Positions 1 through 20,000 of a stretch of 20,000 nt of DNA are shown piece by piece (positions within the stretch are counted from its first letter, which is position 1; the number at the start of each line of letters is the position of its first letter). The notes beneath the pieces were generated by a model, which made no database searches, was not told the DNA's origin, and worked only from the letters and a program-made list of their open reading frames with translations. This DNA is from an uncultured virus (IMG/VR IMGVR_UViG_3300020057_000040). Its lineage: Duplodnaviria > Heunggongvirae > Uroviricota > Caudoviricetes. The DNA lies in IMG/VR virus record IMGVR_UViG_3300020057_000040, one strand, 5' to 3'. The translations under genes and the position numbers were made by a program.

Positions 1-418
1 GCAACACATTGATAGAAGCCGAATGATAATTAATATAATTCAAGCTAAAGGAAACAAAGATAGGCAAGTCGGATTAAATGATAAATTGATTAAGTTGTTA
101 GAGGATTATTATAAAGAATATAAACCAAAAGAATATATTTTGAACGGACAGTTTCCTGATAAGCAACTTAAATATTCTGATAGAAGTGTTGGAGAAGTTA
201 TCAAACAATTAGCTAAAAAATCAGGGATAACTAAAGGTGTTCACACACATTTAATTAGACATTGTTCTGCAACACACATGGTAGAATCGGGTGTTGATAT
301 TAATTTAATTCAAAAACTTTTAGGTCATGGGTCTGTTAAGACTACTAATATTTATTTACATATTTCGCATAATCACATCTCTAAAATACAATCTCTATTA
401 CAAAAAATTAGTTTATAG
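1..418 (+). CDS. Tyrosine recombinase/integrase, C-terminal catalytic part (5' truncated by window edge)
   Basis: Frame is open from base 2 (QHIDRSRMIINIIQAKGNKDRQV). Catalytic motifs: KGxKxR, HLIRH (H-x-x-R) and LLGH...TTNIY (catalytic Tyr). Confidence 0.93.
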   Translation, partial: QHIDRSRMIINIIQAKGNKDRQVGLNDKLIKLLEDYYKEYKPKEYILNGQFPDKQLKYSDRSVGEVIKQLAKKSGITKGVHTHLIRHCSATHMVESGVDINLIQKLLGHGSVKTTNIYLHISHNHISKIQSLLQKISL

Positions 419-422
419 AAAT

Positions 423-1625
423 ATGAAAAAAATAAAAATAATTGTTGGCTTAAATTTTGGTGATGAAGGAAAAGGATTAACAGTATCGTATCTTTGTAAC
501 CAATCTAAAAACCCTTTAGTAATTCGTTTCTCAGGTGGACAACAAGCAGGTCATACAGTTGTTCACGAAGGAAATCGTCATGTGTTCTCAAATTTCGGTA
601 GCGGTACAATGCAAGGTCATCCGACTTATTGGAGTGAGTATTGCACTTTCAGTCCGCTCGGTGTTTTGAATGAACACAACGCCTTGAAAAAAATAAAAGG
701 TTTAGAACCTAAATTATTTGTTCATCCTTTATGTCCCGTTACTACACCTTATGACCGTGTGTTTAATTGTCAGTTGGAAAAATCAAATCAACACGGCTCT
801 TGCGGTGTCGGTGTAGGTTCAACAATCCAAAGGCAAGAAGATTATTATAAACTTTTTGTTCAGGATTTATTTCACGAAAACGTATTAATTCAAAAATTGC
901 AAAATATAAAAAATTATTATGCAAAGAAACTTGCTATTTCAAACCCATACATTGATGAAAAAATGGGTGTGAATATGGATGATTTTATTCACATAGTTAA
1001 TGAAGTGAAAAAAATTATTACTGTTGATAATGGTAGTGAACTTTTATCACAGAATGGTTACGATTTAATTTTTGAAGGTTCACAAGGAATTTTGCTTGAC
1101 CAAGATTTCGGTTTCTTTCCTAATGTAACACGTAGTAATACCACTTCAAAAAATGCTCTTTCGATTATCAATAACGATAAATATTTAAGCATGATAAATA
1201 AAAGTGATATTGAAATTTATTATATCACTCGTTCTTATCAAACCCGTCACGGTAACGGTTATATGAGTAACGAAAATTTATTCGGTGAATTGAATTTAAA
1301 AAATAACGAACTCGAAACAAACGTAACAAACGAATGGCAGGGTAATTTCAGAAAATCTGTTTTGGATATAGATTTATTGAAGTACGCTTTTCAATGCGAT
1401 TCAAATTTCTCTCATGGTATAACAAAACATTTAGTTGTAACTTGTGTTGACCAAACGGGAGATATTATTCCTGTAACTATTAATAACGGTGATAATAATA
1501 TTTTATATAATATTCATATCGAAGAATTACCAACCCGTTTACCTGTAAATTTTAAAAATGTTTATATCAGTCGTGGAGATACAACCGATAAGATGTCAGT
1601 TATTTATTTAAATAATCATATATGA
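423..1625 (+). CDS. purA: Adenylosuccinate synthetase-like protein (PurA family)
   Basis: ATG at 423 gives MKKIKIIVGLNFGDEGKG; also RFSGGQQAGHTV, HGSCGVGVG, FEGSQGILLD, FPNVTRSNT and TNVTNEWQGNFR. The ORF-track start at 327 overlaps the integrase and is unlikely. Confidence 0.88.
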   Translation: MKKIKIIVGLNFGDEGKGLTVSYLCNQSKNPLVIRFSGGQQAGHTVVHEGNRHVFSNFGSGTMQGHPTYWSEYCTFSPLGVLNEHNALKKIKGLEPKLFVHPLCPVTTPYDRVFNCQLEKSNQHGSCGVGVGSTIQRQEDYYKLFVQDLFHENVLIQKLQNIKNYYAKKLAISNPYIDEKMGVNMDDFIHIVNEVKKIITVDNGSELLSQNGYDLIFEGSQGILLDQDFGFFPNVTRSNTTSKNALSIINNDKYLSMINKSDIEIYYITRSYQTRHGNGYMSNENLFGELNLKNNELETNVTNEWQGNFRKSVLDIDLLKYAFQCDSNFSHGITKHLVVTCVDQTGDIIPVTINNGDNNILYNIHIEELPTRLPVNFKNVYISRGDTTDKMSVIYLNNHI

Positions 1626-4140: not shown

Positions 4141-4215
4141 GGTGTTATTAGCTCAGTTGGTTAGAGTGCCTGATTGTGGTTCAGGAGGTCGTGGGGTCGT
4201 AGCCCACATAATACC
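4141..4215 (+). tRNA. tRNA-His (GTG)
   Basis: G-1, acceptor GTGTTAT/ATAATAC, discriminator C; anticodon arm CCTGA-TT-GTG-GT-TCAGG; atypical T-loop GTCGTAG. Confidence 0.88.
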
Positions 4216-4220
4216 CAAAA

Positions 4221-4313
4221 GGAGAAGTACCCAAGTTGGTTAAGGGGGCAGTTTGCTAAACTGTTAGGTCGTGTAAAAACGATGCGTGAGTTCGAGCCTC
4301 ACTTTCTCCGCCA
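4221..4313 (+). tRNA. tRNA-Ser (GCT)
   Basis: Acceptor GGAGAAG/TTTCTCC; anticodon arm GCAGT-TT-GCT-AA-ACTGT; long variable arm; TTCGAG T-loop; encoded G73-CCA. Confidence 0.93.
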
Positions 4314-4346
4314 AGAGTAAAAATGTTCTTTGAAAATGAATTTATT

Positions 4347-4429
4347 GGAGGGATGCGACCAACGGTGGTCAACTGCGTTTGAAGCGCAGGGCGGTCTTTA
4401 CGGACAGGGTTCGATTCCTAATCTCTCCG
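4347..4429 (+). tRNA. tRNA-Ser (TGA), non-canonical fold with 8-bp acceptor stem and short T-stem
   Basis: GGAGGGAT/ATCTCTCC pairing (8 bp); anticodon arm CTGCG-TT-TGA-AG-CGCAG; long variable arm; GGG-TTCGATT-CCT T-arm; G discriminator. Confidence 0.75.
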
Positions 4430-4443
4430 CAAAAATTAAATAA

Positions 4444-4527
4444 GGGAGTTTATCCAAGTGGTCAACGGGGACAGACTGTAAATCTGTTGGCTTTATGCCT
4501 TCGTAGGTTCAAATCCTACAACTCCCA
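4444..4527 (+). tRNA. tRNA-Tyr (GTA)
   Basis: Acceptor GGGAGTT/AACTCCC; anticodon arm ACAGA-CT-GTA-AA-TCTGT; T-arm GTAGG-TTCAAAT-CCTAC. Confidence 0.93.
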
Positions 4528-4540
4528 CAAAAATAAATAT

Positions 4541-4627
4541 GCCGATATGGTGAAATTGGACAAAGACACAACAGACTTAAAATCTGTCGCCTTCAATGGC
4601 ATCCCGATTCGAGTTCGGGTATCGGTA
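4541..4627 (+). tRNA. tRNA-Leu (TAA)
   Basis: Acceptor GCCGATA/TATCGGT; anticodon arm ACAGA-CT-TAA-AA-TCTGT; T-arm CCCGA-TTCGAGT-TCGGG; long D-loop. Confidence 0.88.
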
Positions 4628-4641
4628 CAAAAAATAAATAT

Positions 4642-4727
4642 GCGGGTATGGCGAAACTGGCTGATACGCACCTGTTTTAGAAACAGACGCTTTAAATGGC
4701 ATAAGGGTTCGACTCCCTTTACCCGCA
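4642..4727 (+). tRNA. tRNA-Leu (TAG)
   Basis: Acceptor GCGGGTA/TACCCGC; anticodon loop TT-TAG-AA closed by CTGT/ACAG; T-arm AAGGG-TTCGACT-CCCTT. Confidence 0.88.
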
Positions 4728-4809
4728 CAAAATAAAAATAGGTAACTATATATCTATTGGGACAAGGTTTAAAATTTTTAAGCCGTTTTTGTAGGAAATA
4801 ACAAACATT

Positions 4810-6845: not shown

Positions 6846-7325
6846 TTATTTTTTTAGTTTATTATTAATAAAAACATATTCAGCGTGTGAAAGTGCTTGA
6901 TGGTATTTTTTAACCGACTTAATGAAACCAAAGAAAGCCATTTTGCTAACACCAACATATTCGTTACCATAATCCAAAGGTTCTCTTTCTGTTTTAGGAA
7001 ATATTTTTTCCGTGTTAGAATCCATAGAGTTTTTAAGCAACTCGTATTCGGCTGCATTTAAAGCAAAGTGATATTTATTCATAACAGATAATAAGTGTTT
7101 AAAACTATTACCTGAATCAAACTTCTTTTTGTAAATACCATCTTTAACTCTATTCCTAACAGGAAATATTTTTATTGATTCCATTGCTTCTGTAATTTTA
7201 TCAACTTTTTTTTCTACTGCTTCTGCCATCTTACGAAGCAACTCCAAAGTTTCAGGTGAACAATTGGGACTGACTGTTGCAACTGACTTTGAAGTTACCC
7301 GTATATGGCGGTGGTCATCAAACAT
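6846..7325 (-). CDS. Hypothetical protein with short internal repeat
   Basis: Start overlaps the NAMPT-like stop (TAATG); KYHFALNAAEY and KYHQALSHAEY repeat. Confidence 0.65.
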   Translation of the reverse strand: MFDDHRHIRVTSKSVATVSPNCSPETLELLRKMAEAVEKKVDKITEAMESIKIFPVRNRVKDGIYKKKFDSGNSFKHLLSVMNKYHFALNAAEYELLKNSMDSNTEKIFPKTEREPLDYGNEYVGVSKMAFFGFIKSVKKYHQALSHAEYVFINNKLKK

Positions 7326-8842
7326 TAATCTAATTTTTTTATTCGTTCACGTATTTGCTCTAAAGTAGTTTCATTAAAAAATTTACCATCTTCATAAATT
7401 ACTTTAAGCATACCTTTAGATTCTTCTTCGTGAGTACATTGAGTTTTTACCTCATAGTTTTCTGTAACCTGAATCAATCCTTTTAAAGATTTTTTAGTTC
7501 CGTCATCAGTTATAGGGTCTTTATAAATATCGTACTCTTTACCATCGGCTTCAAACCACGCTCCTTTAGCAGCGAAACCTAGTGAATCCCTTGTAACATA
7601 TCTGTATGTATAAGAACCAACACCTAAAACAATATTTGTTGAAGCAAATCCTTTAGCAGCTAACCTTTCATAAATTTTAATCTGTCTGTCTAAGGTTATA
7701 GAATCACCATACAGTACGCCAATGTGAGGGTCAAGAACTTTGTAACCTTGATTATTTATAGTACCACCGAATATATCCCAAAGTAATTCTATAACGCCTT
7801 TACAGGCAGGAATATCCTTATCAGCTATTGGACTGTCTTTCATAAATCTATTATCTAAAGTAAAATACTTTCCATCTTCTACAATAAATTCTTCATGTCC
7901 ACAAATAATATCAATAGGATTACCACTATCAGGACGGATAACTAATTTACCATCACGACCCATAATTTCAGATTTCAAGGCAATCAAATAAACGGTAATT
8001 AATTTCCACAAATCGAATGTGTCTGCTACGATAGATAAAATACCTTTATCAAATTCTTTTAACCAATCTGCTATCATTTGTTGTTCTCCTACTGTAAATA
8101 TCTTTGTGGTAGATACAGAGTGTTCAGAAGCGTTAACTGAATTAATACAAACTTTATCTTCGGGTTCACCGTAGAAATATCTTGCTGCAAGAATTACAAT
8201 TAATGTATCAGAACCCCTGTGGCTTGTTGCATGACCCATGCCACTTGAAATCATATCAAATGGCGACATACCCCTTGCGCTAAAATCATGGCACATATAA
8301 TCAATGAGCCAAGCATTTGTAGGGTCTGTTTTCATAACCCAATGTTTCGCATTTCTTCTGTATTGTAAAGCCGTTGTTGCTGATGTAGATGAAACCCAAG
8401 CTAAACTTGAAACAATTGTTTCCAAGTATAATGTTAACCACGCAAAACCACTTTTTGTATTTATAAAAGTCATGTGTGGTACGTTAGGGTTTGTTTCTAT
8501 TCCTTCGGGTAAACTTTTTGCTTTAATAGGCAAATAACCGACTTTATGTAATTCTTCAAAATGTGAAGCATTAAAATCCTGCATGAGATATAAACTCATG
8601 TCTTTACCGAATTTCATTGCTTGTTCTAATGGTAGTTTAAAGAAATTTTCCGTAAACTCATCATGTAGCCATCTCCAAGTCAATTGTTGACCGAATGATA
8701 AAATTTTAGTTATGCCTTTGTTAGCGTGTTTGATGCTTCTTGGTATCCAAGTACCGTATAGAAAATTAGTGTTTGGTGCTAACATTCTTTTGTGTCCTAC
8801 TTTATATCCATCGGAATAGTAGAGTGAGTTTGGTCTAAACAT
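7325..8842 (-). CDS. nadV: Nicotinamide phosphoribosyltransferase-family protein (NadV/NAMPT; possibly Namat-type)
   Basis: SDGYKVGH, HDFSARG, SEHSV, SIVADTFD, LVIRPDSG, YGDSIT, GVGSYTY and KDPITDDGTKKSLKG motifs of the NAMPT family. Confidence 0.92.
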   Translation of the reverse strand: MFRPNSLYYSDGYKVGHKRMLAPNTNFLYGTWIPRSIKHANKGITKILSFGQQLTWRWLHDEFTENFFKLPLEQAMKFGKDMSLYLMQDFNASHFEELHKVGYLPIKAKSLPEGIETNPNVPHMTFINTKSGFAWLTLYLETIVSSLAWVSSTSATTALQYRRNAKHWVMKTDPTNAWLIDYMCHDFSARGMSPFDMISSGMGHATSHRGSDTLIVILAARYFYGEPEDKVCINSVNASEHSVSTTKIFTVGEQQMIADWLKEFDKGILSIVADTFDLWKLITVYLIALKSEIMGRDGKLVIRPDSGNPIDIICGHEEFIVEDGKYFTLDNRFMKDSPIADKDIPACKGVIELLWDIFGGTINNQGYKVLDPHIGVLYGDSITLDRQIKIYERLAAKGFASTNIVLGVGSYTYRYVTRDSLGFAAKGAWFEADGKEYDIYKDPITDDGTKKSLKGLIQVTENYEVKTQCTHEEESKGMLKVIYEDGKFFNETTLEQIRERIKKLD

Positions 8843-11278: not shown

Positions 11279-12523
11279 TTAGTTTAAATTTAATTTTTGT
11301 GTATCAATAATCCAACTTTTTCTTGCACTAACTCGTTTCATTTTTTCAAACTTAGGAATTGGTTTTAGTTCAACTTTTTTGTTATCAATGTTCATTAGTA
11401 TGGCGTATCCTGTTGCCATTCTACCTTTGATAAAATATATTTTTCCTTCGTATTCAACCTTGTCAAATTTTCTGAATCCTTTGATTTTTCCAACAGGAAT
11501 AATTTGTTCAGAGCGCACTCCTTTTCTTAATTGAAAATCTCCATCTGAAATACACCTCTTTAAAATAATTTCATTTGTTTTAAAAGTAACAGGATTTCCA
11601 TTGCTACCAATTGCAACAGCATCAAAATAATGTTCTTTTGGCAAACCAATTAATTGTCGGTGTTCTTTTGTAATGTATCCAAAAGTTTCTTCTGCATTTG
11701 AAAGTCGTTTTAATAATTGAACACGAATTGAGTTCATTTGTGTAGCATGATTTAATTGACCTTTCTTTTTACCTTTTAATTTAAGAATAATTTTTCCTGA
11801 GTGTAAATCTTCATGGCAAGTATCGTGCAAGGTTATTAGATTTTTTTCATCATCAGAACCACCTTCACTTTTAAAAATAATATGATGAACTTCTAATTTT
11901 TTGTTTTCTGTTTTCTTTTTACAATGTTGACAAATATAATTATCACGGTGCAAAACATAGGATTTTGTATTTGCGAAACCATAGTTAATTCCTTTTTGAT
12001 ATAACGAATTATTTTTTAAAACATCAGGGTTTTTTAGTGCGTGTGTGTCAAAAGTTGCTGTTTCAATTTTTAATTTTGTAATAGGTAAAATTGATTTTAC
12101 AAATTTAATTTCCTTTAAATGAGAATTAATTTTACTTGTCATTGTTGGTGAAAATCTGTCAGTTCTGATACTGTTTTTTCTATTGTCGAATCTTGGTTTT
12201 CTGTATCTTGTATTTTTGTTTCTGCGAAACCTTCGATACTTTGAACGCTGTGTCATTTTTTCTGAAACATCATTTCTGATTGTAATTTCAGAAACATAAA
12301 CAACTTCATTTTTTTCATTCAAAACTGCACTTCCAACAACCGAACTTCCTGAATCAATATCATGTTCTAAATCTTGTTTGTAGTCGGTTGTTTCATAATT
12401 TAATTGAATTGTAAAAGGCGTAGTCATTACTACTTTCGCCTTGTTTTGTTTAAGCAAAATTCTTCCAATTGCCGAACAGCATGGCATCAGAGGATTTTTT
12501 TCTTTGCTTAAAACGTAAACCAT
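11279..12523 (-). CDS. iscB: RNA-guided endonuclease IscB
   Basis: N-terminal PLMP; RuvC-I DIDSGS; Arg-rich bridge helix RRFRRNKNTRYRKPRFDNR; RuvC-II ETATFD; HNH CQHC...HHIIFKSEGGSDDEKNLITL...H; RuvC-III HYFDAVAI. Confidence 0.95.
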   Translation of the reverse strand: MVYVLSKEKNPLMPCCSAIGRILLKQNKAKVVMTTPFTIQLNYETTDYKQDLEHDIDSGSSVVGSAVLNEKNEVVYVSEITIRNDVSEKMTQRSKYRRFRRNKNTRYRKPRFDNRKNSIRTDRFSPTMTSKINSHLKEIKFVKSILPITKLKIETATFDTHALKNPDVLKNNSLYQKGINYGFANTKSYVLHRDNYICQHCKKKTENKKLEVHHIIFKSEGGSDDEKNLITLHDTCHEDLHSGKIILKLKGKKKGQLNHATQMNSIRVQLLKRLSNAEETFGYITKEHRQLIGLPKEHYFDAVAIGSNGNPVTFKTNEIILKRCISDGDFQLRKGVRSEQIIPVGKIKGFRKFDKVEYEGKIYFIKGRMATGYAILMNIDNKKVELKPIPKFEKMKRVSARKSWIIDTQKLNLN

Positions 12524-13583: not shown

Positions 13584-14549
13584 TTAATCATACAAATCAA
13601 TAAAATCTCCAAATGGAATTACTGTAACTAAGTTTCCGTAAGTACCGATTGTATTTTCTACCTTGCCTATTGATGGTGTTGTGTACACACGCTCAATACC
13701 GCTATCTTTTAAAGAGTTTACGTCTGATGAATTTTCATAATGGCTCACAATTAGATAAATTTTACCTGCATTACGTTTCTTTAATTCTTTTGCTAATCCA
13801 ATAAACGTTCCGCCCTTAGAACAAATATCATCTATAATGACTACATCACGTCCTTCCAAATCCTGTTTATCAACGGTATAAGCTATTATTTTTCCGTCAT
13901 TAAGATTACGGGCTTTATTACATAGGATAATATCGTCTTTGTAATTTAATTCACCTGCTAACTTAAATATTTTTTTGAAAGCACCTGAATCGGGAGAAAC
14001 AAATAACGGGCTACCTTTTAGAGTGGCTTTAAATTCATTTTCACTAACCCCTTTATCATTTTGTGCGTAACCATGAAGACCAACAATGTGAGTTAACGCT
14101 TCATAAACAAACGCTTTGTTACTTATTACATGAATGTTATGTTCTAATAGAGTAGGCGTTATATCCGAATGAGCATCGAGAACAAAAATTCTATGGAACT
14201 CACATGATTTAAGCATATCAGTCACTACCTTCAATGAGAATGGTTCACCATCTACCATAACCCTGTCCTGACGGGCATAAGGCATATATGGCATGAATAA
14301 GTCAATCTTTTCGTAACCCATGCGTTTTAGAGCATCATTAGTTAATAGGATACTAATTAAATCATCCGAGCTATTAGCGTGAGCGTAAATAGTTACTGCG
14401 GTTGTTTCAATTTTAGGTTCGCTGTCTTTAATCTTAACATGGACTTCCCCACCTAAGAAATTAAATTGCTCTGAGGTTAATGCAGATTCAATTGCTTCTC
14501 CATCTTTATTGGTTATTGGAGTGAACCCGTTTATAAATATTGTTTCCAT
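13584..14549 (-). CDS. prs: Ribose-phosphate pyrophosphokinase (PRPP synthetase)-family protein, possibly Adps-type
   Basis: FLGGEVHVKI, MPYMPYARQDRVM..GEPFSLKV, LDAHS, VSPDSGAFKK and VVIIDDICSKGGTF (PRTase motif). Confidence 0.9.
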   Translation of the reverse strand: METIFINGFTPITNKDGEAIESALTSEQFNFLGGEVHVKIKDSEPKIETTAVTIYAHANSSDDLISILLTNDALKRMGYEKIDLFMPYMPYARQDRVMVDGEPFSLKVVTDMLKSCEFHRIFVLDAHSDITPTLLEHNIHVISNKAFVYEALTHIVGLHGYAQNDKGVSENEFKATLKGSPLFVSPDSGAFKKIFKLAGELNYKDDIILCNKARNLNDGKIIAYTVDKQDLEGRDVVIIDDICSKGGTFIGLAKELKKRNAGKIYLIVSHYENSSDVNSLKDSGIERVYTTPSIGKVENTIGTYGNLVTVIPFGDFIDLYD

Positions 14550-14989: not shown

Positions 14990-15430
14990 TTAAAAAGGCA
15001 AGTTGTCGTTGTTATCTTGGTTACTATTACCGCCACCGTTATTATTGTTTGGTGTAGTGGTATTTGAGTTAGTATTATCGTTACTTTGATTTTCTTTTTT
15101 CTGACCTTGACCTAATTCAATTTCTTTAACCTCAATTTTCATTTGAGAAACATTTTTACCTTCCTTGTCAGTATAAGCGTGTATATCGGGTACTCCTTCA
15201 ACAACAACGTATGTTCCTTTTTTTAGGTATTCAGCCAATTTCGTCTTTCCTTTTTCTTTCCAGTAAGCACAGGTAAAAAAATAAGCTCTCTCATTTTTAT
15301 TTCCCTGCTTATCCAAAAAACGTTCATTTACAGCAACAGTAAAATTAATACACGCTCTTGTTTCTGAATTTTGTGGAGTGTAAATTGTTGCATCTGCTGT
15401 CAGGTTTCCCGAAATAATAATTTTTCTCAT
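14990..15430 (-). CDS. ssb: Single-stranded DNA-binding protein
   Basis: ISGNLTADA, NFTVAVN, YLKKGTYVVVEG OB-fold motifs; low-complexity linker; C-terminal DNLPF. Confidence 0.95.
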   Translation of the reverse strand: MRKIIISGNLTADATIYTPQNSETRACINFTVAVNERFLDKQGNKNERAYFFTCAYWKEKGKTKLAEYLKKGTYVVVEGVPDIHAYTDKEGKNVSQMKIEVKEIELGQGQKKENQSNDNTNSNTTTPNNNNGGGNSNQDNNDNLPF

Positions 15431-15442
15431 ATTTATTTTTTT

Positions 15443-16063
15443 TTAGTTGTTATCAAAAAAGTTTTCTAAGTACATAATCATTGGAGCGTATTTATCACCT
15501 GATTTACGGTATCTCAAATAATCTTTACTGCCCATTAATAAGTGAATTACGTGTTGGTGAACCTCATACCATTCAGGCTTAATTAATTTCCAAATGAAAT
15601 TAGCATTTTCTTGTCTGTACTTAACAAACATACTCTCTCCTTTATATGCGTGTCTTTTTTCGTAAGAGTATTTTACGTTAGCTATGCGGTCAGCTAACTT
15701 AATGAATTTAGCAAATGGAGTTCTACGGATACCTCTGTAATATTTTGAATTTGCTCTTTCGGCTCTGTTTTTACCTTTCTCGTTTGTTACAGCATAAGCA
15801 AGTTCAGCAACTTGTTTGTTAGTTGCTTTCATAACATTATTAAATGTTTGACGGCAATCCTCGCAACAATCATGTGTCCAAATACCACCACGAACATTAT
15901 TTTGATGCGTTGCAGGAATTAAGTCAATAAACGTATCTCCAATATCATCAACCATTTCTAAATGGAATGTGTATGGTTGGTCTTGATACGTGTGGTTTGT
16001 TTCAGTATGGCATTTTACAGCATACTCTTTTGCAATCTCGGCAATATTTCTTTCGCTTTCCAT
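15443..16063 (-). CDS. RelA/SpoT-type HD hydrolase (small alarmone hydrolase/Mesh1-like)
   Basis: AVKCH...PYTFHL...WTHDCCED...KLADRIAN. Confidence 0.78.
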   Translation of the reverse strand: MESERNIAEIAKEYAVKCHTETNHTYQDQPYTFHLEMVDDIGDTFIDLIPATHQNNVRGGIWTHDCCEDCRQTFNNVMKATNKQVAELAYAVTNEKGKNRAERANSKYYRGIRRTPFAKFIKLADRIANVKYSYEKRHAYKGESMFVKYRQENANFIWKLIKPEWYEVHQHVIHLLMGSKDYLRYRKSGDKYAPMIMYLENFFDNN

Positions 16064-16065
16064 AA

Positions 16066-16302
16066 TTATTTTTTTTTATAGCTATTTAAGTAAATAGAAA
16101 AATCTAAGTTATTCGGGTGAGTTATGAAACTTTTTATTTCTTTAATTTCATTGTATGAAACTTGAAAAACTTTACCATTTTTATCCATACAAATGTAAAT
16201 GGTTGGACTTGCATTGTTACAATATCCACGAGCCTTATCAATAATAATACCTTCTTCGTTTTTTGAGGAGATAATTACTGCTCCTATGATTGATGTTTCC
16301 AT
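16066..16302 (-). CDS. Hypothetical protein (78 aa)
   Basis: ORF spaced 2 nt from both neighbours. Confidence 0.65.
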   Translation of the reverse strand: METSIIGAVIISSKNEEGIIIDKARGYCNNASPTIYICMDKNGKVFQVSYNEIKEIKSFITHPNNLDFSIYLNSYKKK

Positions 16303-16304
16303 AA

Positions 16305-17372
16305 TTACTCTTTTAATTTAATTTTATTAAAATCCAAATAACGTTCCTGTTCTTTTTTCGGTAATGTTTTTATTGCAGAACTTGAAATATGATTGTAGTT
16401 ACCATCACAGGTAATAAATACAATGGGTATATTACAACCTAAATCTTTTATGTATTGACACATGGTTAATTCATAATCTAAATCTTTAGCGTTCCTTAAA
16501 CCACGAACCAATGTTAGGTTGTCGTAATCCAATCCTTTTATGTAATCAGTAATAAGACCGTGATACATTTCTTGTTGATAATGATTTAAGCACATTGGTA
16601 ACATAGTAAAATCACCATTATTTTTACCCGCATTGATACCACGAGCAAGAATTACTTTATCAAAAATTTGTTCGGCTTTGTCCAATATATTTTTATGTCC
16701 AATGTGAAATGGATTAAAGCTACCTGCAAACACCGCTATCTTTGGTTTTAATGTTTTGAAGTATTCAATTAAATAACAGATGCCTGTGTACTTAGATGTG
16801 TTCCTTAAACCTTCTGCAAGTGTTTCTAATACTTCTAATCTTTTTGTACGGTATGTGTTCCAATCAACGAATTGATACTCTTTAAAAATTTGTTTGTCGT
16901 ATTCTATTATTTCCGAAAATGATTTTTCAAAAATATGCAGGTCTGCATTAATTAGAGATATTGAAAGGCAATAATACGTTTTATTTCGTGTATTGTTTGG
17001 TTTATGTGTTTTTGTATCCATAATCAAATCGTAAATTACCATTCCTTCTGCTGTTTCTCCCTTCCAATCGTTCTTAAATTGTTCGGCAGATTTTTCTTCA
17101 TTATTATTTGCCTTCGGGTCATAAACGTAATCGTGATAAACGGTAGCGATAATTATTTCATCATCCGTTTGTTCCATATCAACCAAATACATTACCATAT
17201 CCTCGATGTGTTTCCAAGTATGATAATGACGATGCGGTTGAGAATAAGCAGCTTCAAATTTAGTTATATCAAAACCCATTTTATGATTTAAAAACGATTG
17301 GCGTATAATCATATAAACTACTTGCTCTTTTGGAGTGTACGTTAATAAATGATTTATTTCTTCTTTTGTCAT
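16305..17372 (-). CDS. Fusion of an HD-like metal-dependent phosphohydrolase and a CoaD/PPAT-like nucleotidyltransferase
   Basis: N-half YSQPHRHYHTWKHI...YHDYVYDPKANNNEEKSA...ADL; C-half AVFAGSFNPFHIGH (HIGH), RGLRNAKDLDYE, ISSSAIK. Confidence 0.82.
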   Translation of the reverse strand: MTKEEINHLLTYTPKEQVVYMIIRQSFLNHKMGFDITKFEAAYSQPHRHYHTWKHIEDMVMYLVDMEQTDDEIIIATVYHDYVYDPKANNNEEKSAEQFKNDWKGETAEGMVIYDLIMDTKTHKPNNTRNKTYYCLSISLINADLHIFEKSFSEIIEYDKQIFKEYQFVDWNTYRTKRLEVLETLAEGLRNTSKYTGICYLIEYFKTLKPKIAVFAGSFNPFHIGHKNILDKAEQIFDKVILARGINAGKNNGDFTMLPMCLNHYQQEMYHGLITDYIKGLDYDNLTLVRGLRNAKDLDYELTMCQYIKDLGCNIPIVFITCDGNYNHISSSAIKTLPKKEQERYLDFNKIKLKE

Positions 17373-17704
17373 GCAGATTTTTCTTGTTTAGAATTATAAC
17401 ATTTGATAAATTCAATCACCGCTAAATAAACCTTGTCTATTTCGTAATCACGCATATAAGTTCCGATTTCACTTTCTAACCAATCCAAATTACTACAATG
17501 GTTTACGGTTGGTCTGTCGTGTTGGTTCATTGATATGTCAGCACATTTTTTGCAAACAGGAATTAACCAATTCCAGTCAATATGATATTGAACAGGATTA
17601 TACTGAGAGTTAAGAATAGGTGCATGAGGTATGTTTTGTTTCCATTCTTGACCCATAAAACACGATATGAGTTTATTTCCTTCTAATGTTTCTTCGTTAG
17701 TCAT
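17369..17704 (-). CDS. Phage hypothetical protein
   Basis: NKLIxxFMG...YHxDWNWLIPV pattern typical of phage ORFs. Confidence 0.65.
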   Translation of the reverse strand: MTNEETLEGNKLISCFMGQEWKQNIPHAPILNSQYNPVQYHIDWNWLIPVCKKCADISMNQHDRPTVNHCSNLDWLESEIGTYMRDYEIDKVYLAVIEFIKCYNSKQEKSA

Positions 17705-17705
17705 T

Positions 17706-18347
17706 TTATTTTTCTCCTATCGTTTGATGTTTACGTGCATATTCGGCATTTAAAAGAAAACGTGATACACCTTCCATTCGTTTCATTTTTATTATATGAG
17801 CCTCCAACTCTTTACTCATTTTATCTTGGTCGGCTTTTGATAATTTGTTTTCCATTTTATCAACCCTTAATTGAGCTTTTTGCAAGTCCTCATTAACTTG
17901 ATGTTTATCACGCCACTTTGTACGGGTACGTTCATCAGGTTGAAAAAAATCTTTGTGCTTATGAAAGAAAGAATCCATTAGTAATTGCTTTTCTATTTTA
18001 TGTAATTTTGAAAAGTATTTAAACTTCTCAATCACTTCAAAATAATCTTCGTTATCCAAATCAACCTTAATAGCATCTTTTAATTGGATTGTTTGAGTGA
18101 AAGGATTTACAGATAAAATTACATTTGTAATAATTATTAAATCATCTAAAGACTTTACTCTGAATTTACGGGTGTTAGAGGAAGCATCTATCTCTCCCAT
18201 TTCTAATCCGTACTTCTCCATGTGTTCCTTAAACTTATTTTGGGAATTTGTTTTCTCACCGCCTACACCTCTCTTAGAAAGTTCAAGTAACTTACGTGCT
18301 TTAACGATGTGTTTTTCCCGATTAGTATTATCTTTTACTTCACTCAT
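17706..18347 (-). CDS. DUF2786-like domain phage protein
   Basis: N-terminal KARKLLELSKRGVGGEKTNS...MEKYGL resembles DUF2786. Confidence 0.55.
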   Translation of the reverse strand: MSEVKDNTNREKHIVKARKLLELSKRGVGGEKTNSQNKFKEHMEKYGLEMGEIDASSNTRKFRVKSLDDLIIITNVILSVNPFTQTIQLKDAIKVDLDNEDYFEVIEKFKYFSKLHKIEKQLLMDSFFHKHKDFFQPDERTRTKWRDKHQVNEDLQKAQLRVDKMENKLSKADQDKMSKELEAHIIKMKRMEGVSRFLLNAEYARKHQTIGEK

Positions 18348-18351
18348 GTTC

Positions 18352-18627
18352 TTACGCTTCTGTGTTATTTGAAATTACAACCTTCTCTTTATATTTTAAT
18401 TTTTTAGGCTTGAAAACCTTTTTAAATGACTTTACAAGGTCTTTAGGTACATCCTTACCATTCTTCTTAACACAACGTCTTAATACGTCATAAACAAAGC
18501 GTTTATCTTTGCTGAAATGTTTTGATGCTGCTGTTATCGTTATACCTTTTTTATCAGCGTATGCGATAATTTTATTTGCGAGTGTTATCCTTGATATTTT
18601 CTGTTGTAATGTTAATTTTTGGTTCAT
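18352..18627 (-). CDS. Basic hypothetical protein, possible HTH DNA-binding
   Basis: Lys-rich; GITITAASKHFSKDKRFVYDV is HTH-like. Confidence 0.5.
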   Translation of the reverse strand: MNQKLTLQQKISRITLANKIIAYADKKGITITAASKHFSKDKRFVYDVLRRCVKKNGKDVPKDLVKSFKKVFKPKKLKYKEKVVISNNTEA

Positions 18628-18681
18628 GTATTTCGTTTTTTTTAATAATCTATTTTATATTTTTGAAATTCTTTTTATTTT

Positions 18682-19053
18682 CTAATGGGTTACCCCTTTT
18701 ATATTAAGATGTTCTTCCACCGCCTGACAAGTAATGTTGAAGAAGAAGCTGGGTGTTACCCCCTTCATATTAAGATGTTCTTCCACCATATCCTTTATAA
18801 AGCCTTGTATTTGCTTGTAGTTCATGCCAAATTGCGATTCAAAAACTGACCAAATATTATGATAATCGCACCATAAATTCGATTTTTCTAATTCTAAAAA
18901 ACACTTTTTATCTTTAATAAAAAATACTGAATCAGGACGTTCTTTTTTAAATGTTTCTGTGTCAATTGTAAGCCCGTTAATCATTTCCAAAAAAACTTCT
19001 TCTTTTGTTTTTTTAGGTATTAGATTTTCAGATTTGTTTTCTTCGTTGCTCAT
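18682..19053 (-). CDS. Array-associated small protein, paralog A
   Basis: Near-identical to the two upstream paralogs; C-terminus encoded by repeat-spacer-repeat (VEEHLNMKGVTP-SFFFNITCQA-VEEHLNIKGVTH). Confidence 0.8.
   Translation of the reverse strand: MSNEENKSENLIPKKTKEEVFLEMINGLTIDTETFKKERPDSVFFIKDKKCFLELEKSNLWCDYHNIWSVFESQFGMNYKQIQGFIKDMVEEHLNMKGVTPSFFFNITCQAVEEHLNIKGVTH
18686..18787 (-). CRISPR. CRISPR-like mini-array A (2 repeats, one 30-nt spacer)
   Basis: Repeats at 18686-18721 (degenerate) and 18752-18787; spacer 18722-18751. Confidence 0.65.
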
Positions 19054-19089
19054 TTTTTTTATATTTTTTAAATTCTTGTTATTTTCTAA

Positions 19090-19259
19090 TGTGTTACCCC
19101 ATTCATATTAAGGTGTTATTCCAACACTTTATGTAACAGGGTAGCGTTGCTTATGCGGTGTTACTCCCTTCATATTAAGATGTTCTTCCACTAGTCACAG
19201 AAAACAGAAGCGGAAATTGAAGTGGTGTTACCCCATTCATATTAAGATGTTCTTCCACC
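19090..19259 (-). CRISPR. CRISPR-like mini-array B (3 repeats, two 31-nt spacers)
   Basis: Repeats at 19090-19125 (degenerate), 19157-19192 and 19224-19259; unique spacers 19126-19156 and 19193-19223. Confidence 0.7.
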
Positions 19260-19579
19260 ATATCCTTTATAAAGTCTTGTATTTGCTTGTAGTTCATGTC
19301 AAATTGCGATTCAAAAACTGACCAAATATTATCATAATCGCACAATAAATCCGATTTTTTTAATTCTAAAAAACACTTTTTATCTTTAATAAAAAACTTA
19401 GAATTAGGATGACTTTTCTTAAATGTTTCCGTGTCAATTGTAAGCCCATTAATCATTTCCAAAAAAACTTCTTCTTTTGTTTTTTTAGGTATTATATTTT
19501 CAGCTTCAATTAATTTTCTTAGTTCGCTAACTTCATTTTCTAATTCGGTTAATCTTTTTTTGTTTTCTTCGCTGCTCAT
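19175..19579 (-). CDS. Array-associated small protein, paralog B (extra N-terminal coiled-coil)
   Basis: Same core as paralog A plus KKRLTELENEVSELRKLIEA; ends inside the second repeat (SGRTS*). Confidence 0.8.
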   Translation of the reverse strand: MSSEENKKRLTELENEVSELRKLIEAENIIPKKTKEEVFLEMINGLTIDTETFKKSHPNSKFFIKDKKCFLELKKSDLLCDYDNIWSVFESQFDMNYKQIQDFIKDMVEEHLNMNGVTPLQFPLLFSVTSGRTS

Positions 19580-19615
19580 TTTTTTTATATTTTTTAAATT
19601 CTTGTTATTTTCTAA

Positions 19616-19850
19616 TGTGTTACCCCTTTTATATTAAGATGTTCTTCCACCCCGTTAGTTTTACTTTCGGCAATGTAATCGGGTGTTACCCCCTTCATAT
19701 TAAGATGTTCTTTCACCATATTTTACTTTCAAAAGTAGATGTAGAACGGGTCTTACCCCCTTCATGTTAAGATGTTCTTCCACCAAGGAGGCATTTAAAG
19801 AATAATAAATTCGGGGTGTTACCCCCTTCATATTAAGATGTTCTTCCACC
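19616..19850 (-). CRISPR. CRISPR-like mini-array C (4 repeats, spacers 30/31/30 nt)
   Basis: Repeats at 19616-19651 (degenerate), 19682-19717, 19749-19784 and 19815-19850; consensus (minus strand) GGTGGAAGAACATCTTAATATGAAGGGGGTAACACC. Confidence 0.75.
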
Positions 19851-20000
19851 ATATCCTTTATAAAGTCTTGTATTTGCTTGTAGTTCATGTCAAATTGCGA
19901 TTCAAAAACTGACCAAATATTATCGTAATCGCACCATAAATCCGATTTTTCTAATTCTAAAAAACACTTTTTATCTTTAATAAAAAACTTAGAATTAGGA
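19700..20000 (-). CDS. Array-associated small protein, paralog C (5' end outside window)
   Basis: Frame is open to the window edge (PNSKFFIKDKKCFLELEKSDLWCDYDNIWSVFESQFDMNYKQ...); the ORF-track start at 19888 is an internal Met. Confidence 0.8.
   Translation of the reverse strand, partial: PNSKFFIKDKKCFLELEKSDLWCDYDNIWSVFESQFDMNYKQIQDFIKDMVEEHLNMKGVTPRIYYSLNASLVEEHLNMKGVRPVLHLLLKVKYGERTS

Follow-up and report, generated by a model that had tools for sequence, protein, structure and literature searches.

Type VI-B CRISPR arrays consist of 36-nucleotide (nt) repeats with complementary 5′-GUUG/CAAC-3′ ends and a U-rich open loop, alternate these with 30-nt spacers, and yield a CRISPR RNA (crRNA) of 66 nt in which the guide precedes the repeat (10.1101/092577; PMC11662929; for these and all other papers cited, our statements refer to the excerpts available). 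In Flavobacterium columnare, a VI-B array that has no cas1 is filled in trans via the Cas1 of a II-C system, with spacers of ~30 nt that stem from phage and host DNA alike and of which many cannot target mRNA (PMC8092290). Here we describe CRISPR-like arrays of 36-nt repeats on a phage genome, where they are part of three tandem cassettes, each made up of a gene for a small protein and the array that continues it. The cassettes occupy positions 18,682 to 20,000 of a 20,000-nt stretch of DNA from an uncultured virus of the Caudoviricetes (IMG/VR record IMGVR_UViG_3300020057_000040; this whole stretch is referred to as the window).

Short repeat sequences on viral genomes have been described before. 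Viral mini-arrays without cas genes hold 1–3 spacers matching related viruses or local DNA and are presumed to use the Cas proteins of the host (PMC11656645). RNA anti-CRISPRs (Racrs) are solitary viral repeat units that can occupy an effector and lower defence, and the viral repeat survey covering them, which masked open reading frames (ORFs), found every CRISPR type except VI according to its available excerpts (PMC10651486). Moreover, an over-expressed RNA composed of the leader plus the first repeat (ecrRNA) sequesters Cas13b and lowers phage defence, while host arrays suppress this RNA by means of a leader-repeat hairpin (PMC13187072).

Cas-less viral mini-arrays and RNA anti-CRISPRs are thus already known, and what is new here are the type VI-like repeats and the embedding of the first repeat in a gene. 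The reading that we favour, and place just on the probable side, is that the cassettes hold genuine cas-less phage CRISPR arrays, seeded on a dual-coding gene end, filled in trans and yielding decoy or hijacking crRNAs. Our literature search, which had bioRxiv supplements outside its scope, found no description of gene-end-fused arrays or of type VI-like phage arrays.

Arrays that overlap gene ends

The initial annotation of the window, made from its letters alone, listed nine copies of a 36-nt repeat and six unique spacers with lengths of 30, 31, 31, 30, 31 and 30 nt along the plus strand. A repeat search recovered exactly this set: seven copies were found at up to 3 mismatches, against none in 200 shuffles, and all nine at up to 8 mismatches, every one of them on the minus strand. 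The copies are distributed over arrays 3, 2 and 1 (Table 1) as 4, 3 and 2 repeats. As had likewise been noticed, the most degenerate repeat is the last one of each array (3, 5 and 4 mismatches in arrays 3, 2 and 1), and an AT-rich trailer (repeat family D4) is common to all three. While the three genes are 93–98% identical over 186–283 nt (families D1 and D3), which agrees with their annotation as near-identical genes with unique spacers, the six spacers show no likeness to one another or to the rest of the window (at up to 7 mismatches). An inverted repeat between spacer S4 and positions 18352–18372 (81% of 21 nt) was judged to be due to chance. Of the annotated "at least three" tandem units, three were confirmed; further units beyond position 20,000 are not there, since unrelated genes lie upstream of unit 3 in the locus (L003) in which its full gene was read, so that the window phage has exactly three. 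A scan for sigma-70 promoters revealed no more sites than in shuffles.

Each gene had been described as running directly into its array. The two are in fact not adjacent but overlap, as the first repeat of each array corresponds to the last 12 codons of its gene (VEEHLNMKGVTP). Beyond this repeat, the reading frame extends into the first spacer as far as the next stop. Since stop codons are present in the two remaining frames of the repeat, read-through that has left the frame is terminated within the following repeat, with tails such as ...GRTS as a result. The repeat encodes residues 108–119 of the small protein, which lie within the folded domain of the AlphaFold model (AF2); for the unit 2 protein, this model has an overall confidence score (pLDDT) of 90.7, with 96 for residues 101–110 and 90 for residues 111–120. 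Comparison of the first repeats of six cassettes yielded 40, 48 and 76 differences at codon positions 1, 2 and 3, respectively. In a distant relative (L007), KWRVETT is encoded in place of the NMKGVTP of the window, but GGAGGGTA and an ACAAC end are retained. Judged from these alignments and the protein model, the repeat is a dual-coding sequence that appears to hold codons and a type VI-like repeat signal at once.

The small protein is predicted to be well folded, with a long N-terminal helix. Foldseek returned nothing from the PDB at E ≤ 0.001, VIA-align (wide) reached a best Z of only 4.2, BFVD yielded only uncharacterised proteins of uncultured phages at E ≥ 0.015, and the ESM Atlas gave no usable match. 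Of the cassette ORFs, the two complete ones that were scanned (units 1 and 2) had no match in Pfam or PHROGs.

The small protein belongs to a large family, for which phmmer returned 558 representatives at E ≤ 0.001, most of them 100–150 amino acids (aa) long with a VEEHFKxKGxTP-like end motif. Members have diverged to 30–45% protein identity, and their phages span 30–61% GC. The initial annotation had proposed to test whether homologs are always followed by repeat-spacer units; such arrays are present in all gene copies with readable DNA (at least 13). Among the 150 best proteins, 44 contain an in-frame second copy of the motif ~22 aa downstream (21–23 allowed), and a regular expression detected a frame-shifted second copy (WKNI-type tails) in another 17, about 15 of which are convincing; 64 are too short to tell, and 25 have no second copy by regular expression, at least 3 of these showing one by eye. 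In proteins with a strict in-frame repeat, the period is exactly 22 aa in 42 of 43.

Distant relatives (L005, L006 with two genes, L007, L009 and L010) have identical 36-nt unit boundaries and periods of 65–69 nt, mostly 66. The genes of L005 and L006 were found in IMG/VR by protein pattern, and L007, L009 and L010 by a tandem DNA pattern that is biased towards arrays; the locus search was based on 12 aligned members of the family, as 45 proved too diverse. A word-based search found close relatives only, each with another tail after the conserved ...GVTP, and different tails imply different first spacers. A related phage from another metagenome (L004) carries a single hybrid unit, and a third contig (L002) at least 4 units with other spacers. 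In the complete 51-kb phage to which L006 belongs, the two genes overlap (460–1221 and 1155–2072) and place the family domain at the C-terminus of 253- and 305-aa proteins. Two further proteins, P0010 (588 aa) and P0011 (760 aa), each combine five domains with the associated repeats in one ORF and one frame.

No conserved neighbour gene accompanies the cassettes in the loci examined. Upstream of the cassettes in L003 (2–1366) and L004 (11833–12867) lies a protein of many 23-residue leucine-rich-type repeats (LTSVTLNKATxFGSxCFxxNxK), of which the copy number varies (454+ aa in L003 versus 344 aa in L004). A cluster with a 66-nt period at ~36290–36850 of G002 (locus L012) turned out to consist of two small Gly/Tyr/Asp-rich low-complexity ORFs (GYGDGDGYG...) and is unrelated to the cassettes.

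Outside this family, searches were negative. The exact repeat had no match in IMG/VR. In GenBank phages, megablast of positions 15000–20000 and tblastn of the small protein returned nothing, and blastn of the arrays gave only chance-level matches (E ≥ 0.1). Blastn of the window and L007 arrays against plasmids likewise yielded chance matches only, and a protein-pattern scan of one genome per species (185,579 species) returned 44 stretches, none of them a relative.

Sources and turnover of the spacers

The window and related loci together provide 19 distinct spacers, with lengths of 30 nt (n = 12), 31 nt (n = 4), 29 nt (n = 2) and 33 nt (n = 1). Protospacers of the window spacers were sought in the Logan contigs of four microbial-mat DNA runs, from the same microbial-mat metagenomes. 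Contigs without arrays contained a 30/30 copy of S1 in all four runs, a 30/31 copy of S2 in two runs and a 31/31 copy of S4 in two runs, all flanked by unrelated, AT-rich, non-repeat sequence (for example in contigs of 1458 nt (X11 record 20), match at 579–608, and of 1893 nt, match at 554–583). According to their 30-nt flanks, inspected by eye, the sources of S2 and S4 are coding-like, and that of S1 is intergenic, next to the apparent start of a tRNA gene. Overall, the sequences from which the window spacers were copied have a phage-like character. Scans of IMG/VR with spacer cores of S9, S5, S4 and S1 gave no matches, and GenBank phages no significant ones.

Further sources were indicated by the relatives. 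Spacer a1 of L006 matches a tail-like ORF of the same complete phage at 28/30, or 29/33, positions, and its 2 mismatches in 30 are what one would expect of a guide directed against a closely related phage. In each of two phages of 31% GC, a single spacer has a GC content of 60% and 63%, respectively, which ranks among the top 0.08% and 0.2% of the 30-mers of its own genome, indicating that these spacers are foreign. The spacers are copies of DNA from the same communities or from the phage's own genome.

Sources are known for four spacers, and relative to the apparent ORF, two of these spacers run antisense and two (S2 and L006 a1) sense, as judged by eye from 30-nt flanks. A shared motif flanking the protospacers, which the initial annotation had proposed to look for, did not emerge: the four flanks, a very small sample, have no protospacer-adjacent motif in common and do not contain the TTTANNNNN known from F. 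columnare.

Spacer content changes between close relatives. Behind genes of 80–95% identity, L002, P0001, P0004, P0006 and P0008 carry other spacers, and a near-identical strain in run X10 has 4 listed differing sites in 17710–18681, yet differs throughout the last repeat and S6 (18682–18753). The Logan contigs contain further alternative spacers as well as unit-deletion joints, one of which (in X10) skips 707 nt. Together, the protospacers elsewhere and this turnover between near-identical strains bear out the proposal that spacers were gained or exchanged independently of gene duplication.

The extra nucleotide of S2 and the 3 extra nucleotides of L006 a1 (924–956), the spacers longer than 30 nt with a known source, are both located at the gene-proximal end, as though insertion had slipped on that side. 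The arrays are also polarised: the trailer-end repeats of the window carry an ATAAAA variant that equals the gene-end repeat of sister cassettes in L002, which fits the addition of new units next to the gene, with the oldest repeat left at the trailer.

Type VI likeness and explanations of the cassettes

The ends of the phage repeats recall those of type VI. GGTG...CACC ends are found in the window and L005 and GTTG...CAAC ends in L007, with imperfect end stems in L009 (GGTG...CAAC) and L006b (GGTA...CACC). Among VI-I first repeats, 9 of 15 start with GGTG and end with CACC (Dataset EV1, PMC13187072, as available). The L007 repeat matches that of Bergeyella zoohelcum VI-B at 24/36 positions, with GTTGGAA, TGGAGGGTA at the same positions and ACAAC in common; the window repeat matches VI-I row 193 (MENH01000096) at 22/36 positions and the VI-B repeats of B. 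zoohelcum or P. gingivalis at 17/36, all of these being ungapped, hand-counted comparisons with rows chosen by motif search among the 212 rows of Dataset EV1. The centre of the window repeat is A/U-mixed (CUUAAUAU), without a poly-U run. Where the initial annotation had seen the geometry of type II and VI-B arrays, the VI-B-like length, spacing and ends hold, but the end stem and hairpin are not thermodynamically distinctive: the repeat folds into the expected topology, yet no better than shuffles. RNA folding of guide plus repeat was uninformative. From these comparisons, the likeness to type VI repeats seems real but moderate, and type VI membership is unproven.

In agreement with the initial annotation, which saw no cas1, cas2 or effector gene, a scan of 25 ORFs of the window against Pfam and PHROGs gave no match to a Cas family. 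Five viral records of related phages, two of which are 100% and 92% complete, respectively, had no Cas1 (PF01867), and the cas models of PADLOC had no match among the 109 ORFs of these two records. Barring an unforeseen activity of the small protein, both the insertion machinery and any reader of the arrays therefore have to be supplied by the host.

In the favoured reading, a host integrase of the Cas1-Cas2 type would act in trans during infection, duplicating the gene-end repeat and inserting ~30 bp. Each new unit would enter on the gene side and leave the degenerate repeat, the oldest one, at the trailer. Filling of a repeat-like gene end as in F. columnare would account for the duplicated 36-nt unit, the ~30-nt insert, the polarity and the mixed orientations. 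Transcription of the gene would then read through the array, and a host Cas13b-like enzyme would cut the transcript into 66-nt units of a 30-nt guide plus a 36-nt repeat. The first of these units would be constant and target-less, consisting of the last codons of the gene itself. A phage gene ending in a repeat would be a natural bulk source of leader-plus-repeat RNA of the kind that sequesters Cas13b, to which the appended spacer-repeat units would add more. The cassette RNAs would occupy the host effector, with their main role that of decoys weakening Cas13 defence, and guidance against rival phages as a possible addition. Guides for a host effector and RNA decoys, both named in the initial annotation, remain the two best functional readings, although neither a host array nor an effector was found; we favour the decoy role, with guidance against rivals as a possible secondary one. 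Integration in trans, transcription through the array, processing and the decoy role are the part of this scheme that we infer.

Several observations weigh against this scheme. A near-exact 28-nt repeat pattern had no match when 185,579 species were scanned with a single genome each, with only four positions being variable in the pattern, so that a host repeat differing elsewhere at one position would be missed, and with the true host perhaps outside the set. With 30–61% GC among the relatives, the hosts may extend beyond the Bacteroidota, the usual carriers of Cas13b. Identity to type VI repeats is moderate at 47–67%, and the repeats of known viral mini-arrays are identical to those of their hosts, in the available text (PMC11656645). 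In searches of Rfam (E ≤ 10), neither CRISPR-DR families nor others of relevance were assigned to the arrays of the window or to L002, L007, L009 and L010. The repeat alone is no more stable than shuffles (z −0.16 to −0.44), and in context its end stem pairs with a probability of at most 0.14. Guides from S2 and L006 a1, which have the orientation of the apparent ORF, would be unable to base-pair with the mRNA of that ORF, and the protospacer contigs may belong either to this phage or to another genome. Finally, a target-finding Cas13 guide in an infected cell would trigger collateral RNA cleavage that harms the phage too, which argues for decoys rather than weapons.

A further-reaching version, possible rather than probable in our estimate, would be that the gene family has a dual-coding 3′ end mimicking Cas13 repeats, with which it floods the host effector with target-less, ecrRNA-like decoys and at the same time uses the host integrase to record co-resident DNA heritably, as a virus-side adaptive memory that redirects immunity against rivals. 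In its boldest variant, the small protein itself may recognise the repeat.

Among the alternatives, the strongest, which we nevertheless regard as unlikely, is that the arrays are a functionless by-product ('neo-CRISPR'): the gene end would happen to resemble a host repeat, the integrase would insert spacers by mistake, and the resulting arrays would be tolerated without benefit. Nivala et al. reportedly found in 2018 that off-target integration creates new arrays. Such an origin would fit the absence of strand choice in the spacer sources (2 of 4 sense), the shortness of the arrays (2–4 repeats) and the loss of units by recombination, as in the L004 hybrid unit and the X10 joint, and early stops that 4 of 10 distinct first spacers introduce into the protein tail do no apparent harm. 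A costly accident should, however, vanish by synonymous change of the 12 codons, whereas the arrangement persists across the family's whole range of protein identity and GC content, the 36-nt unit boundaries are identical everywhere, and type VI-like ends and core are kept in L007 despite the change of amino acids.

We rate as improbable a phage-autonomous system, in which the small protein would recognise the repeat RNA or DNA and process guide-like RNAs or help insert spacers. It would be in line with the strict coupling of gene and repeat in every case examined, with the lack of any other conserved neighbour gene, with the absence of cas genes from complete or near-complete genomes, and with a well-folded protein to which searches assigned no function. 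This coupling is trivially explained, however, by the repeat being the gene's own end, the ~110-aa domain has no nuclease, integrase or RNA-binding likeness (VIA-align, Foldseek PDB, BFVD), and a known host system has repeats similar to the ones seen here. Nothing was found in positive support of a phage-autonomous system, and the initial suggestion that the small protein binds or processes repeat RNA is not borne out, no fold match having been obtained.

It is more improbable still that the units are a protein-level device, that is, silent or translated alternative C-terminal cassettes providing a hypervariable tail or peptide modules like those of precursors of ribosomally synthesised and post-translationally modified peptides (RiPPs). 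The 66-nt period does equal 22 codons, a period kept exactly in nearly all strict in-frame proteins, the spacer length is a multiple of 3 in 13 of 19 cases, and P0010 and P0011 read through five domains and repeats in one frame. Nevertheless, 6 of the 19 spacers (29 or 31 nt) break the frame, stop codons occupy both other repeat frames and 4 of 10 first spacers, the translated spacers look random, and spacers were copied from unrelated DNA, including the intergenic stretch by an apparent tRNA gene start. To the view that the 3′ end of the gene was simply duplicated in tandem within the gene and then drifted, with which the derivation of the repeats from the gene end and the tandem duplication of the gene itself would agree and which the initial annotation had named as the refuting scenario, we attach next to no credence, as it is excluded by the exact or near-exact spacer sources elsewhere, and as the spacers are mutually unrelated while the repeats are 86–100% identical and spacer length is held at 29–33 nt.

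The window is part of the genome of a lytic phage, a large one that belongs to an uncultured community, with nearly all genes on the minus strand and a GC content of 31%. Apart from the cassettes, Pfam and PHROGs scans identified the protein genes listed at the bottom of Table 1, as well as a single-stranded DNA-binding protein (SSB) and an EcoRI-type methylase. The nearest matches of its nicotinamide phosphoribosyltransferase (NAMPT) come from a phage of Leptolyngbya (63.6%), phages of Tenacibaculum (63.3%) and crAss-like phages of Bacteroides (~43%); together with the 31% GC, these relatives are a weak pointer to a Bacteroidota host. The nicotinamide adenine dinucleotide (NAD)-salvage set resembles phage pathways by which NAD+ is restored in the face of NAD-depleting defences. 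The PurZ-like synthetase and the HD-domain phosphohydrolase hint that 2-aminoadenine may replace adenine in the phage DNA; if so, DNA-targeting defences would be blunted and the RNA-targeting Cas13 would be the more relevant threat. The RRXRR + HNH protein was considered as a reader of the arrays, but is probably unrelated to them: PF14239 occurs in none of the five related records, a weak test given that control genomes also had none. The source of spacer S1 adjoins the apparent start of a different tRNA gene than those of the window, on another contig.

Table 1. Features of the cassettes and other features of the window (window positions unless a locus is named; R, repeat; S, spacer).
Feature	Position	Strand	Basis or remark
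Unit 3 gene, 3′ part	19815–20000	−	5′ end beyond window; ORF 19700–19999; last 12 codons = repeat R1
Unit 3 gene, full ORF, 144 aa	L003 2817–3251		read in locus L003
Array 3, 4 repeats, spacers 30/31/30 nt	19616–19850	−	repeat search
Array 3 R1	19815–19850	−	
Array 3 S1	19785–19814	−	
Array 3 R2	19749–19784	−	
Array 3 S2	19718–19748	−	
Array 3 R3	19682–19717	−	
Array 3 S3	19652–19681	−	
Array 3 R4	19616–19651	−	degenerate, 3 mismatches
Array 3 AT-rich trailer	19580–19615	−	up to unit 2 gene start codon; repeat family D4
Unit 2 gene	19224–19579	−	ORF 19175–19579 = 134 aa with read-through tail; conserved protein ends 19224
Array 2, 3 repeats, spacers 31/31 nt	19090–19259	−	repeat search
Array 2 R1	19224–19259	−	
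Array 2 S4	19193–19223	−	
Array 2 R2	19157–19192	−	
Array 2 S5	19126–19156	−	
Array 2 R3	19090–19125	−	degenerate, 5 mismatches
Array 2 AT-rich trailer	19054–19089	−	repeat family D4
Unit 1 gene	18752–19053	−	ORF 18682–19053 = 123 aa, in frame through S6 and last repeat
Array 1, 2 repeats, spacer 30 nt	18686–18787	−	repeat search
Array 1 R1	18752–18787	−	
Array 1 S6	18722–18751	−	
Array 1 R2	18686–18721	−	degenerate, 4 mismatches
Array 1 trailer	18628–18685	−	up to next gene (18352–18627); repeat family D4
NAD-salvage set: nicotinamide phosphoribosyltransferase, ribose-phosphate pyrophosphokinase, phosphohydrolase plus cytidylyltransferase-like protein	7325–8842, 13584–14549, 16305–17372	−	Pfam/PHROGs
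PurZ-like adenylosuccinate synthetase	327–1625	+	phrog_1211 E 2.4e-63; Pfam Adenylsucc_synt 1.2e-45
HD-domain phosphohydrolase	15443–16063	−	phrog_990
RRXRR + HNH protein, 414 aa, IscB-like domain make-up	11279–12523	−	PF14239 3.8e-53; HNH 7e-11
Five tRNA genes (His, Ser, Tyr, Leu-taa, Leu-tag)	4142–4728	+	strand opposite to nearly all protein genes

Significance and comparison with described systems

In the excerpts available, no type VI mini-array or RNA anti-CRISPR has been reported so far, and a survey that masks ORFs would have missed repeats embedded in genes (PMC10651486). Should the favoured reading be true, a large uncultured phage family, represented by 558 sequence clusters, would counter or exploit Cas13 immunity by means of a sequence that is codons and repeat at once, and an infecting phage genome would be heritably editable by a host integrase. 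Array finders that discard arrays overlapping ORFs would then lose a real class, and the cassettes would offer a natural test bed for Cas13 decoy RNAs, for adaptation in trans and for the sharing of 36 nucleotides by a protein and an RNA signal.

With arrays of the Cas13b clade of type VI (VI-B and VI-I), the cassettes have in common a repeat of 36 nt, spacers of ~30 nt and thus a unit of 66 nt, 4-nt repeat ends that are complementary (GGUG/CACC, which 9 of 15 VI-I repeats have, or, in L007, the GUUG/CAAC of VI-B), a GAAGGG / GGAGGGUA core in the 3′ third of the repeat, and a degenerate last repeat distal to the transcription start. They differ in that cas13, csx27/28 and cas1/2 are absent from their vicinity, and also from the complete related phage, in that their 'leader' is a protein-coding gene, and in that the middle of the repeat is A/U-mixed instead of a U run.

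Virus-borne cas-less CRISPR mini-arrays were reportedly described by Faure et al. and Medvedeva et al. in 2019. Like these, the cassettes are short, lie in a viral genome and have no cas genes. Here, however, a conserved gene family provides the first repeat with its coding end, the cassettes form tandem duplicates and the repeats are type VI-like, and no host array with an identical repeat was present in the genome set of one per species scanned. With regard to RNA-based inhibition, the gene-end repeat and the 30 nt preceding it have exactly the layout of ecrRNA. Racrs are solitary, intergenic and non-coding, whereas the cassettes contain arrays of which the first repeat is coding. The VI-B array of F. 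columnare, finally, is likewise an array without its own integrase that gains ~30-nt spacers, but it is chromosomal and lies beside cas13b, while in the cassettes insertion would take place on the genome of an infecting phage, which is then packaged into progeny.

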